Source: a virus. From it: a stretch of DNA of 15,158 bases. The notes beneath the pieces are model-generated. The model saw only the letters and a list, made by a program, of their open reading frames with translations, did no database searches and had not been told where the DNA came from. Positions 8,840-15,158 of the stretch are shown here, piece after piece. Both the position numbers and the translations under genes were made by a program. The DNA lies in UHGV virus genome UHGV-1773351. One strand, written 5' to 3'. Positions within the stretch are counted from its first letter, which is position 1; every line of letters begins with the position of its first letter.

Positions 8840-8912
8840 AGTCAGCCTGCCAGAAATATATGATGGTGATTCTACTGCTAGTCATTTGTTGAATATTTAA
8901 CTTAATAAAAGA

Positions 8913-8929
8913 AAATTATTAGTGCAATT
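8913..8929 (-). promoter_or_regulatory. C1-operator-like 17-mer (ATTGCACTAATAATTTT on the minus strand) in the divergent control region
   Basis: 15 of 17 matches to the recalled P1 C1 operator consensus. Lies between the divergent operons starting at 8839 (minus) and 8986 (plus). Confidence 0.4.
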
Positions 8930-9812: not shown

Positions 9813-9879
9813 AATAATAAATTAATTAGTGCATATGTGTATCTTTGATACAGCGCACATTAACATCGGGAGAATAATC

Positions 9880-11163: not shown

Positions 11164-11837
11164 TGGCACCAACAATTTATCACCGTATCGACGGTACCAA
11201 ATACAGGAATATCTGGGTTGTTGGTGATCTGCATGGTTGCTACAACAGACTGATGTCCGAACTCCATCGTGTGGATTTTGACCCGGCGCAGGATTTACTG
11301 ATATCGGTCGGCGACCTTATCGATCGCGGTACTGAAAATGTCGAATGTCTGGAACTATTGCAGATGCCCTGGTTCAGGGCAGTGATGGGGAACCATGAGC
11401 GGCTGATGATTGATGCGTTAAGTCCAGATGGCAACGTGAATAACTGGCTAATGAATGGCGGACAATGGTTCTTCATGCTGGACACTGATCAGGAAATATT
11501 AGCTAGGGCGCTGGTGGAGCTGGTAAAGCGTCTGCCCTATATCATTGAGTTGAACACCGGGCAAGAAACTATCGTTATAGCCCATGCCGACTATCCGGAT
11601 AATGAATACCAATTCGGTAAGGAGGTGCCGCTTTTCAACGTTGTCTGGGCGCGCGAGCGTATCAGTGATTCGATGGATGATATTGGTGGCGAAATTTCGG
11701 GCGCAGATCGTTTTATCTTTGGTCACACTCCGGTGAAAAGCCCGAAGACATTCTGGAATCAGCATTATATCGATACTGGTGCCGTATTTTGCGGAAACCT
11801 GACATTGATGAAAGTGAAAGGTGATGGTGCAGCATGA
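11145..11837 (+). CDS. Ser/Thr protein phosphatase, lambda PPase (PPP) family
   Basis: Canonical PPP motifs GDLHGCY, GDLIDRG and GNHE, plus near-collinear similarity to lambda phosphatase ([12 protein letters not shown] ... [13 protein letters not shown]). ATG 11160 overlaps the upstream stop in an ATGA arrangement and is an equally plausible start. Confidence 0.85.
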
Positions 11838-12535
11838 AGATTGCTTTAGTTCTTCGCTCTGGTGGTGACTATAACGCTTCCGATGTGCAGTGGCTGGTTA
11901 ATCAACTGCCAAAAGGCTATGAAATTATTTGCCTGACAGACCTGAAGCGTTTACATGTACCTGGCGTCAAAGTTGTCCCATTGATCAACCAGTGGCAAAA
12001 GTGCCGTGGCTGGTGGGCGAAAATCGAGTTGTTCCGACCGGATATAACCGATGATCTGTTCTATCTGGATTTGGACACGGTTATTGCCGGTGATATACGC
12101 CCAATCCTTGAGAATCCACCAACCAGCTTCACCATGCTTAGGGATTTTTACCATCCACAATATCGTGGTAGCGGTGCCCTGTGGATACCAAATAGTGTAA
12201 AAGCGCATATCTGGAGTTCATTCTGGCAAGATCCGGAAGGTTGGATTGCTCGTTGTGTTACTACTGAATGCTGGGGTGATCAGGGGTTTTTGCGGAAGGT
12301 TATGGGTGATGATACACCAGCATTTCAGGATCTGTATCCGGGATGGTTTGTAAGTTACAAGGCCGATGTTGTGGAACCTGGTTCGAAATATGCGAGCGCG
12401 CGTTACTCCAGGGGGAATGGGGCATTACCAAAAGACTGCCGAATAATCTTTTTCCACGGCAAACCGCGACCTCGCGAAGTGTCAGAGGATTGGCTTCCCC
12501 TTATTAGCTCGTTTTTTGAGCGAGAATCAGAATAA
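11834..12535 (+). CDS. hypothetical protein, possible GT-A fold nucleotide-sugar transferase (DxD-like motif)
   Basis: ATG overlaps the phosphatase stop (ATGA). The motif [19 protein letters not shown] resembles the DxD region of GT-A transferases; this is a motif-level guess only. Confidence 0.55.
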
Positions 12536-12536
12536 T

Positions 12537-12553
12537 ATTGCTCTAATAATTCC
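12537..12553 (+). promoter_or_regulatory. C1-operator-like 17-mer (ATTGCTCTAATAATTCC) overlapping a sigma70-like promoter
   Basis: 14 of 17 matches to the recalled consensus. Part of a conserved 30-bp module (ATTGCTCTAATAA-N6-ATTTTTAAAAC) repeated at 14678; within it TTGCTC and TAAAAC are spaced 17 nt apart. Confidence 0.45.
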
Positions 12554-12561
12554 ATATTTTT

Positions 12562-12591
12562 AAAACGTGATGTACACTCATCACGTTTTTT
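12562..12591 (+). terminator. rho-independent terminator after the 11834-12535 gene
   Basis: 11-bp perfect stem AAAACGTGATG/CATCACGTTTT with loop TACACT, followed by a T6 run. Confidence 0.7.
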
Positions 12592-12602
12592 ATTAGAGCA
12601 AT
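12586..12602 (-). promoter_or_regulatory. C1-operator-like 17-mer in inverted orientation (ATTGCTCTAATAAAAAA on the minus strand)
   Basis: 14 of 17 matches. Inverted partner of the 12537-12553 site, giving a roughly 66-bp palindromic unit around the terminator hairpin. Confidence 0.4.
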
Positions 12603-12616
12603 CTATAAGGTGCACT

Positions 12617-12835
12617 ATGTGGCCATTCCGACGGAAATATCACTACTGGCTGATCGCCTTTGTTACGCCGACCGGCGGTATCAGGCATGTCATCACCAGG
12701 TATCGCAACAAGAGACTCTCCTTAGCCAGAATTTTACAGGCTGCCATAGGTGAGGGACTGGATACAAATTGCGTAGTCCTTCCACCTTCATATTTAGGAA
12801 AAATGACCGAAGCACAAGCTAATACGGAACTTTGA
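12617..12835 (+). CDS. small basic hypothetical protein (72 aa), possibly coupled to the downstream gene
   Basis: GGTG 5 nt upstream of the ATG. Its stop TGA lies 1 nt before ATG 12837. Composition is not strongly protein-like, so weak. Confidence 0.3.
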   Translation: MWPFRRKYHYWLIAFVTPTGGIRHVITRYRNKRLSLARILQAAIGEGLDTNCVVLPPSYLGKMTEAQANTEL

Positions 12836-12836
12836 A

Positions 12837-14099
12837 ATGAGCACTTCAGCACAAAACCAATCAATCGAAAATGTATCTATCCCTGACGTCCTTAATGCCG
12901 GTATCCCGGCCATTATCCAGAACATCCGGGCCGCGCAACGCCGCGTTAGTTGTGATGACCTCACAGCACGTTTTTTTGATAATGCGGTTCAGTCAGCGGA
13001 GATGCTTCACGCACAGCTTATTGATGTTTATAACGCAGAAGCTGATAGCCATAACTCCCTGGTAGATGCAGCTGAAAATATGCAGTTGGATCTCGGTCTG
13101 AAGGGTAAAGAAATTGAAGAGCTTCAGCTGCAAATTGAACATTTGAAACGCCAGCAACAGGACGCGATCGACGATGCGACGCATGACGCCAACCAGCGTG
13201 CTGATAATGCCGAACGTATAAGCATTGAGCTGGAAACAAAACTCAATGAAATGACCGCGATGGTTGAACTGCAGAACTCACAGATTTCAACGCTAAAATC
13301 TCAATATAAAGAGATCATGAAACTTGATCCTTTTAACCTTGAGAAACGCTATAACAAAGCTAAAAGCGAGCGACAGGAACTGCGTAAGCAGGTCGCCGAC
13401 CTTAACCAACAGCTCAAAAAAACTATTAAAGATGCAAGCGAAGCGCGCGTGGCATTTGCTAATAAAAAAGCAGAGGTTACCGCGCTGGTTAATGAGAATG
13501 CCAAATTTACGACGCTCAAGAAGGAAATGTATGGCATTACTGAGCGCCGTTTCCCTGCAAGCAAACTTCATCCGACGTTAGGGCAAATCTCCTTCTTCCC
13601 GCGCCTCTTGGCTTATGGGATCTCATCGCCTAAAGAGTTCAATAACGAGCGTCCTTATATCGTGTCTAAGCTGGACTTTGCTTATCAGTTCTGCTGCGAC
13701 ATGGGCTATGCCATTGATATCCGAATCAACGAATGGTTGATGCCAAACTTCCAGCCGTTGGCAATTTTCCGCGAGTTCCAGCCGGAAGGTTGGGTAGAGT
13801 TCTTCCATGAATTGATCTGTAAAGAGATGGAAAGCCGCCGCCCGGAATTGGTCCGTCGAGTTGAGTGGGCGCAAGAGGTTATGTTGGCAGATGCAGAGCT
13901 GCCGTTCGAACCGGAATTCATTGATGATCTGGCAACTAAAGGGTTGCATACCCTGTTTGATGTGGTTACCCGCCGTCATGAGCAGTTGGTTGTCGAATTG
14001 GGTTTAGAGGAAACAGCGGCAAGAAGACTTCTCGATGTTTGCTATGCACGTAGCGATGCATGGGAAAAAGAGAACGGAGGCACTATTTACGTCCGCTGA
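12837..14099 (+). CDS. hypothetical protein (420 aa): N-terminal coiled-coil plus C-terminal globular domain
   Basis: Long ORF. Residues ~60-230 are heptad-like and charged (EELQLQIEHLKRQQQDAIDD ... RQELRKQVADLNQQLKK). C-terminal 190 aa is aromatic/Cys-containing with no motif I recognise. Confidence 0.7.
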   Translation: MSTSAQNQSIENVSIPDVLNAGIPAIIQNIRAAQRRVSCDDLTARFFDNAVQSAEMLHAQLIDVYNAEADSHNSLVDAAENMQLDLGLKGKEIEELQLQIEHLKRQQQDAIDDATHDANQRADNAERISIELETKLNEMTAMVELQNSQISTLKSQYKEIMKLDPFNLEKRYNKAKSERQELRKQVADLNQQLKKTIKDASEARVAFANKKAEVTALVNENAKFTTLKKEMYGITERRFPASKLHPTLGQISFFPRLLAYGISSPKEFNNERPYIVSKLDFAYQFCCDMGYAIDIRINEWLMPNFQPLAIFREFQPEGWVEFFHELICKEMESRRPELVRRVEWAQEVMLADAELPFEPEFIDDLATKGLHTLFDVVTRRHEQLVVELGLEETAARRLLDVCYARSDAWEKENGGTIYVR

Positions 14100-14118: not shown

Positions 14119-14152
14119 AATGCTGGTGGAGTGCGCCCACCAGCATTTTTTT
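14119..14152 (+). terminator. rho-independent terminator after the 420-aa gene
   Basis: 11-bp stem AATGCTGGTGG/CCACCAGCATT with loop AGTGCGC, followed by a T7 run. Confidence 0.75.
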
Positions 14153-14171: not shown

Positions 14172-14678
14172 TTGAGTATTTTCAATAAACATGCACACCA
14201 GGAACGTCCGTATATCGTCATAGTCGATATTGATGGAACAATATCAAAGGCAACTGAAGACAGACTGCATTTGCTTCCGCCACCAGGTAAAGGTGCATTA
14301 ACAAAGGACTGGAACGAGTTTAATCTCGCCTGTGACACCGATACTCCCATCACTCCAGTTATTGATATGGTGCGCCAGTTATTTAACGTTTACACGGTCT
14401 GGTTTGTAACCGGGCGCTGTGAGATCGCAAGGGATAAAACACGAGCCTGGCTGCGGAAGTACGTAACAAACGGGGCTGAGCCTTTGCTATCTATGCGTCC
14501 TGCCACCGATGACAGAAATGACGGCCCAGCAAAGATTGATCTCCTTAAGAAAATTGGTCTAAGTAAAATCGCGTTCGCGCTGGAAGATAAGATTGAAGTG
14601 GCGCGTGTTTTCAGGAGGCACGGCGTGCTTACGTTAATGGTCAGGGAGTATGAAAATGCGCTTCTTCACCAACAATAA
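14172..14678 (+). CDS. HAD-superfamily phosphatase (DxDGT motif; resembles polynucleotide 3'-phosphatase / nucleotidase-type domains)
   Basis: TTG start with a strong GAGGAGG 5 nt upstream. Motif I IVIVDIDGT and motif II-like WFVTGRCE. Confidence 0.7.
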   Translation: MSIFNKHAHQERPYIVIVDIDGTISKATEDRLHLLPPPGKGALTKDWNEFNLACDTDTPITPVIDMVRQLFNVYTVWFVTGRCEIARDKTRAWLRKYVTNGAEPLLSMRPATDDRNDGPAKIDLLKKIGLSKIAFALEDKIEVARVFRRHGVLTLMVREYENALLHQQ

Positions 14679-14707
14679 TTGCTCTAATAAATCTTGATTT
14701 TTAAAAC
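14678..14707 (+). promoter_or_regulatory. C1-operator-like 17-mer (ATTGCTCTAATAAATCT) with overlapping sigma70-like promoter; second copy of the 30-bp module
   Basis: 16 of 17 matches to the recalled consensus. Same 30-bp module as at 12537 (13 + 11 identical positions, same spacing). Confidence 0.5.
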
Positions 14708-14776
14708 AGGGAAAGTGAAAATAAAAACATGCCGCAAGGCGCGGCATGTATCCAATCAATCACAGGAGCTGAAAAT

Positions 14777-14863: not shown

Positions 14864-14942
14864 GGGGAGTATATTAGCCATTTGGAACCCCACGGTCTCT
14901 TGCGGGTTTAATTAAGAACCCGCAAGAAAAACACGAATTGGG

Positions 14943-15158
14943 CTATATTTTTCCGCCTACGCCTTTAAACTTCTCAATAAACGAGACGATTTTCTGGAAA
15001 ACTGCCTGTTTTTTCTTTTTATATTGCGGATTCAACGGACTAAGTTTTGGTAATGTTTCGTTTAATTCTGTGCCATTTTCGGTGGCATATTCGCGTTTTA
15101 AAGACGTGCGAATATAGCGTTTTGCTGCATCTTCATTGAGATTTTCTTCTTTTATCAA
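14943..15158 (-). CDS. hypothetical protein, C-terminal part only (gene starts beyond the window end)
   Basis: Minus-strand ORF open to the window edge, stop at complement of 14943-14945. The M at the edge in the ORF track is a TTG artifact. Confidence 0.4.

Follow-up and report, generated by a model that had tools for sequence, protein, structure and literature searches.

The 66 bp at positions 12537-12602 of the window (the whole 15,158-nucleotide stretch of the virus genome UHGV-1773351 which was analysed) most probably form the control region between the genes pmgQ and pmgR of a P1-type phage-plasmid, in which two convergent operators of the repressor C1 would repress a predicted promoter, PpmgR, and a hairpin lying between them would terminate transcripts arriving from upstream; we place the probability of this reading at roughly 0.85. 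The result mainly confirms existing annotation, the operators having long had a place on the P1 immunity map. The modest addition made here is comparative evidence for a conserved RNA-level hairpin which overlaps both the predicted promoter and one of the operators, and the element may be seen as a compact example of the sharing of signals. P1-like phage-plasmids are widespread carriers of resistance genes.

The C1 operators and their conservation

The window is approximately 98% identical over some 14.9 kb to P1, RCS47, P7 and SJ46, and the same region is present in 687 plasmid records, mostly from Escherichia and Salmonella. The 66-bp element itself is identical in sequence in the window and in P1, and sits between pmgQ (11834-12535) and pmgR (12617-12835). 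The features of the region are as follows, names in P7 being given in brackets.

11834..12535, plus strand: pmgQ (hdmD), last gene of the upstream unit, with a TAA stop codon at 12533-12535; PHROG 1962, 'glycosyltransferase', E = 7e-128
12537..12553, plus strand: operator OpmgRa, formerly Op86a, ATTGCTCTAATAATTCC; 14/17 to the consensus, the first 13 positions perfect; protein_bind 82152-82168 in P1
12538..12543, plus strand: -35 hexamer TTGCTC of the predicted sigma-70 promoter PpmgR, inside OpmgRa; annotated in P1
12561..12566, plus strand: -10 hexamer TAAAAC of the predicted PpmgR, overlapping the 5' arm of the hairpin; annotated in P1
12562..12589, plus strand: hairpin AAAACGTGATG-TACACT-CATCACGTTTT, 11 bp with 4 G-C pairs and a 6-nt loop; putative intrinsic terminator of rightward pmgQ transcripts
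12586..12594, plus strand: T run TTTTTTATT, candidate U tract of the terminator and also the AT-rich tail of OpmgRb; read from the sequence
12586..12602, minus strand: operator OpmgRb, formerly Op86b, ATTGCTCTAATAAAAAA on the minus strand; 14/17 to the consensus; protein_bind 82201-82217, complement, in P1
12607..12612, plus strand: AAGGTG, ribosome-binding site of pmgR, separated by 4 nt from the ATG at 12617; read from the sequence
12617..12835, plus strand: pmgR (shtA), 72 aa, first gene of the downstream unit; PHROG 3177, E = 8e-47
12837..14099, plus strand: pmgS (shtB), 420 aa; PHROG 1660, 'PmgS-like head morphogenesis', E = 4e-195
14119..14147, plus strand: strong terminator-like hairpin with a T run, after pmgS; 11 pairs, 6 of them G-C, tail TTTTTCGTCC

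The element is built of two inverted repeats, one nested in the other. The outer repeat consists of ATTGCTCTAATAA at 12537-12549 and its exact reverse complement TTATTAGAGCAAT at 12590-12602, arms of 13 nt which are 100% complementary and have 40 nt between them; in the inner repeat AAAACGTGATG at 12562-12572 pairs perfectly with CATCACGTTTT at 12579-12589, giving 11 bp and the 6-nt loop TACACT, and TTATT directly 3' of this repeat extends it into the T run TTTTTTATT at 12586-12594. The window contains one perfect 13-nt inverted repeat whose arms are no more than 60 nt apart, where 300 dinucleotide-preserving shuffles of the same sequence give 0.007 on average. On recheck, the coordinates and sequences of the 13-mers and of the 11-bp-stem hairpin given in the first-pass annotation proved exact, whereas its description of the whole as one long imperfect palindrome was not: the outer repeat is centred on 12569.5 and the inner on 12575.5, and this offset of 6 bp, together with the 12 unpaired nucleotides between the outer and inner arms on the left (there are none on the right), rules out a single long palindrome.

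The C1 protein of P1 binds 22 dispersed operators, for which a 17-bp asymmetric consensus, ATTGCTCTAATAAATTT, has been given (PMC8546580). Both 13-mers correspond to the first 13 positions of this operator, and the full sites, at 12537-12553 on the plus strand and 12586-12602 on the minus strand, each agree with the consensus at 14 of the 17 positions, the mismatches being confined to positions 14-17. Sequences within three mismatches of the 17-mer consensus were found four times in the window where 0.07 would be expected, and sequences within two mismatches of the 13-mer five times (0.48 expected). Two further operators known from P1 were recovered at the expected places and likewise with no more than three mismatches, Op82 at 8912-8928 and Op88 at 14678-14694. 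The equivalent of Op83/Oppp, at 9819-9835 on the minus strand, is the operator of this segment which matches least well: it reads TATGCACTAATTAATTT, with four mismatches, and the P1 version, CATGCACTAATTAATTT, also has four.

In the P1 record AF234172 OpmgRa is labelled as a monovalent C1-controlled operator which controls the expression of pmgR and pmgS, OpmgRb is likewise labelled monovalent, and the GenBank record of P7 names the same two sites Op(sht a) and Op(sht b). The two inverted 13-mers, which had at first been described only as operator-like, match the C1 consensus and coincide with sites annotated in both P1 and P7; going by identical sequence and position, they are the cores of the C1 operators OpmgRa (Op86a) and OpmgRb (Op86b). 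These are already catalogued in P1, and the element is to this extent an ordinary, previously annotated regulatory one; a literature search for Op86 returned only unrelated papers. The c1 gene lies in P1 about 9 kb past the position of the right end of the window, and so outside it, and the relatives which carry the element encode C1 homologues, including the diverged Cronobacter phage JK004, whose homologue is 76% identical.

Conservation of the operators was judged on 78 gap-free IMG/VR loci which were retrieved through the PmgS protein and are in that respect unbiased for operators; a pattern scan of viral contigs, which required both operators to be present, was used only for variation in the hairpin and not for operator conservation. 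None of the 26 core positions varied in the 78 loci (0/13 for each 13-mer), compared with 42 of 136 positions at the 3' end of pmgQ and five of the six in the linker which follows OpmgRb. Two loci had been set aside for indels, and in one of these (L151) OpmgRb carries one mismatch. The two-operator layout is also kept in JK004, the JK004-like contig L209, five Salmonella plasmids and the contigs L210-L213, in all of which the flanks are heavily diverged (PmgS is only 69-75% identical and the flanking genes approximately 70-75%); here too the cores are kept, except for one C-to-T change in the left site of L209 and a variable position 1 in the right site. The cores remain exactly 40 nt apart throughout the lineages examined, bar rare 1-nt indels. 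From the PmgS-retrieved loci, and from the lineages whose flanks are only about 70% identical, it is evident that the operator cores are under purifying selection relative to their surroundings.

Two observations on variation in this region may be added. The linker between OpmgRb and the pmgR ribosome-binding site (12603-12608) is hypervariable among P1-like loci which are otherwise 98-100% identical, and reads CTATAA, CTACAA, TTACAA, ATACAA, CCAAAA, CTGCAA and others. In the phage vB_EcoM-673R5 (ON470615.2) the Op86 region is 98% identical, the best match to the C1 of P1 reaches only 56% identity, and two places in the record match C1; this phage may be a mosaic in which a different immunity repressor faces unchanged operators.

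The hairpin and the predicted promoter

The inner hairpin begins 27 nt past the stop codon of pmgQ, and six U's run directly out of it, so that what is found on the transcribed strand after the stop codon is a stem-loop containing G-C pairs and then a U tract, the arrangement of an intrinsic terminator. On its own it folds with -13.4 kcal/mol (z = -5.1), and folding indicates that in the nascent transcript it is already formed when the outer arm has yet to be synthesized. The T run is invariant across lineages, bar rare 1-nt insertions. Read on the minus strand the hairpin is followed by only four T, and no gene converges on it. A minus-strand ORF of 70 aa with a GTG start (12403-12615) spans the element and is annotated in neither the P1 nor the P7 record.

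Between the lineages the stem changes in sequence. In the JK004 and Salmonella lineages one pair which is G-C in P1 has become A-U and another has gone from A-U to G-C, further changes on one side only yield G.U pairs in 15 cells, and in all 97.2% of the stem cells are paired over 23 distinct variants; the seven unpaired cells are all found in rare variants within the P1 lineage. Cells changed on both sides number 10, against 2.7 +/- 1.3 in shuffles, none of 500 of which reached 10, but all of them come from one deep lineage split and may reflect only one or two events; counted by stem pair, the two pairs with a change on both sides are matched by 318 of the 500 shuffles. As the G.U pairs exist only in the plus-strand RNA, the other strand having A.C at those places, these changes point to a structure in rightward transcripts and not to a cruciform or a protein site. 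The comparative data therefore support the hairpin as a conserved element acting at the RNA level, and we infer that it serves as an intrinsic terminator for rightward transcripts of pmgQ.

The suggestion that the upstream operon could be terminated here, as the first-pass annotation had it, is accordingly one which gains from the comparison, being supported by the hairpin with its U tract, its place just after pmgQ and the compensatory changes. The records of P1 and P7 differ from the reading given here in that neither annotates the hairpin as a terminator, nor does the P1 record mark one at the strong hairpin which follows pmgS. A consensus terminator scan of the window, which gave 28 sites, did not list the hairpin at 12562-12589, presumably because the stem was extended through A-U pairs, leaving TTATTAGA with its four T as the tail. 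No Rfam covariance model scored at its gathering threshold in the region, and the lowest E-value was 1.7.

The hairpin at 14119-14147 lies between pmgS and pap, reads AATGCTGGTGG...CCACCAGCATT followed by TTTTT, and probably marks the end of the pmgR-pmgS unit, which would make this a two-gene unit bounded by terminators. Of its two genes, pmgR has been reported to be essential and to be needed for completion of the head.

The predicted PpmgR is weak by comparison with the consensus, since both TTGCTC and TAAAAC agree at four of six positions, with 17 bp between them, and the latter lacks the final T; a consensus promoter scan of the window listed nothing at this place, and in JK004 the position of the -10 reads TGAAGC. 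The same module is found elsewhere in the window. At Op88, with its predicted promoter P2pmgT, TTGCTC-17 bp-TAAAAC is repeated exactly, as ATTGCTCTAATAA, six nucleotides and ATTTTTAAAAC at equal spacing, and in a P1 genome 8 of 16 operator-like sites have a TAnnnn hexamer 17 bp past the operator -35, with the TA at operator positions 25-26. Written out, Op88 reads ATTGCTCTAATAA-ATCTTG-ATTTTTAAAAC and Op86a reads ATTGCTCTAATAA-TTCCAT-ATTTTTAAAAC, a likeness which suggests either a shared design of C1-controlled promoters or duplication. Transcripts from the predicted PpmgR would start at about 12570-12575, in or beside the loop of the hairpin. The leader beginning there is unstructured (z = +0.7), which would leave the ribosome-binding site AAGGTG (12607-12612) free. 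It had also been proposed at first that the region acts as a repressible start for the downstream unit; this agrees with the annotated C1-controlled PpmgR, itself a prediction only.

Two other promoters were considered and rejected. A leftward promoter using OpmgRb as its -35 would have AGTGTA at the -10 position in the window and ATGATA in JK004, there is no minus-strand gene to the left, and the scan was empty. A rightward promoter using TATAAG at 12604-12609 would depend on a hexamer which lies in the hypervariable linker (where CTACAA, CCAAAA and others occur) and is absent from the diverged lineages.

The element may be envisaged to work as follows. In the lysogen, C1 on OpmgRa would cover the -35 of PpmgR, and C1 on OpmgRb, the two operators pointing towards each other, would lie some 13-29 nt downstream of the presumed start; both bound repressors together would keep pmgR and pmgS off, and on inactivation of C1 PpmgR would fire. 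The hairpin and T run would form an RNA-level intrinsic terminator for transcripts from the upstream pmgL...pmgQ unit, which carry both arms and would stop there. As the -10 of PpmgR lies in the 5' arm, transcripts from PpmgR would start in or beside the loop without that arm and would not be terminated. The T run would have a double role, as U tract and as AT-rich tail of OpmgRb, which may account for the AAAA at positions 14-17 of that operator, where the consensus has ATTT.

More tentatively, and with somewhat less than even confidence, the 66 bp can be regarded as a deliberately interleaved unit, that is, a terminator with a C1-repressed promoter inside it, the distal operator of which doubles as the U tract. 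C1 bound to OpmgRb could then also be a roadblock which strengthens termination in the lysogen. If such an interleaving is real, the essential pmgR-pmgS unit would be insulated from transcription upstream and would have its own C1-controlled timing. As far as the database records were checked, they do not state any interleaving of terminator, promoter and operator, and this is the only part of the present reading which may be unrecorded.

Alternative explanations and comparison with known systems

The hairpin might instead act as DNA, as a spacer or cruciform-prone segment which phases the operators for cooperative bending or looping by C1, possibly with Lxc, termination being incidental. We consider this unlikely. 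The first-pass annotation, on the whole borne out as to operators, repressible start and terminator, had also suggested that a repressor binds cooperatively by looping, and in the form given there this finds no support. The constancy of the 40-nt core gap, with only its rare single-nucleotide indels, speaks for it, as does the T5A4 tract in the spacer between the operators, which can bend DNA; C1-mediated looping is reportedly a property of the Op99 operators. A phasing spacer, however, needs constant length and not complementarity, and in this stem the sequence changes between lineages with the pairing kept; its one-sided changes, moreover, give G.U in the plus-strand RNA but A.C on the other strand and G.T in a cruciform. 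Both sites are called monovalent in the P1 record, and their spacing of 49 bp centre to centre (approximately 4.7 helical turns) is very short for a loop. Rather less probable again is the possibility that the pmgR promoter lies upstream of the hairpin, the latter with its U tract then working within the pmgR transcript as an attenuator in the leader, which damps or conditionally controls pmgR-pmgS. The weakness of the annotated -10 and its lack of conservation in JK004 are in keeping with this, and TAATAA at 12544-12549, within the operator, could be a -10; yet the corresponding -35 would be CGAGAA (12521-12526), a poor match in diverged coding sequence, and no credible promoter was found upstream of 12562. 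The recurrence of TTGCTC-17-TAAAAC at Op88, and of TTGCTC-17-TAnnnn at other C1 operators, also argues for the annotated position, and an essential gene could ill afford a terminator acting constitutively in its leader unless an antiterminator were at hand, and none is evident.

The operator sequences could also pair with each other in read-through RNA, giving a 24-bp hairpin with a 12-nt bulge which might be a double-stranded RNA processing site (e.g., for RNase III) separating the pmgQ and pmgR mRNAs. The full element does fold as one extended hairpin, at -28.1 kcal/mol (z = -5.3) for 12520-12620. Any protein-binding site present in two inverted copies would, however, give the outer pairing as a matter of course; covariation is absent, 10 of the 13 outer pairs being invariant, nothing independent points to processing, and this explanation is held to be highly improbable. 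That the nested inverted repeats arose by chance and have no function, an idea for which only the general AT-richness of the intergenic region could be cited, may practically be dismissed, as it is refuted by the 0.007 repeats expected, by the match to known operators and by a layout which is kept in lineages with flanks only about 70% identical. The reading which we prefer remains that of C1 operators repressing PpmgR, with a terminator for upstream transcripts between them.

With respect to OpmgRa, OpmgRb and the predicted PpmgR of P1, the window is the same in the 66-bp sequence and in position, orientation and flanking genes, and there is no difference in the element itself. The bivalent C1 operators of P1, such as the pair by ban at 64716(+)/64743(-) in OP279344, are likewise composed of convergent 17-bp sites with their AT-rich tails facing each other; this ban-adjacent pair we take to be Op72a/b. 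In a bivalent pair, however, the sites overlap by 6 bp and make one near-palindrome, whereas in the window the two 17-mers have a hairpin between them and are labelled monovalent. A bivalent operator is ruled out here by the spacing, as one 17-mer ends at 12553 and the other begins at 12586, leaving 32 bp between them and no overlap. Op88/OpmgT with the predicted P2pmgT (14678-14710 in the window) shares with the Op86 element the module of an operator serving as -35 with a TAAAAC -10 at identical spacing, but is a single operator and lacks both the second inverted site and the hairpin over the -10.

The hairpin shares with the A-tract/U-tract type of Rho-independent terminator a stem-loop with G-C pairs in it, which has AAAA on one side and TTTTTT on the other and lies just after a stop codon. 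It differs from an ordinary terminator of this kind in that the -10 of a promoter lies in its 5' arm and a repressor operator lies over its U tract. In lac O1/O3, gal OE/OI and lambda OL/OR, too, a promoter lies between two sites for the same repressor, and in this the window element is like them. The lac, gal and lambda loops range from approximately 90 bp to 2.4 kb and are made by oligomeric repressors on symmetric sites, whereas C1 binds asymmetric sites as a monomer, and the Op86 sites are spaced at only 49 bp centre to centre.

Other observations in the window

Some 35 nt downstream of Op88, at 14727-14749 on the minus strand, there is a further terminator-like hairpin, ACATGCCGCG...CGCGGCATGT with TTTTATTTTC, and no obvious leftward gene which would need one. 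Similarity to the reference genomes of P1, P7 and RCS47 ends at about 14867, and only vB_EcoM-673R5 and phi456 match as far as the end of the window (14868-15158); this last stretch could represent a variable or cargo junction. From 14778 there is a short hydrophobic ORF.

At the other end of the window lies an ORF of 275 aa (504-1331), of which 558-1331 has approximately 87% DNA identity to genes described as 'SPFH domain protein / serine protease / lipoprotein' in phage P88 and in Stx-converting phages. Reference P1 covers 91% of the window and RCS47 98%, and the left end thus appears to differ from reference P1. A tRNA gene is present at 1359-1431 (Rfam tRNA, 64.7 bits), in a position which matches that of the P1 gene trnI, annotated as tRNA-Ile2 with the anticodon CAT.
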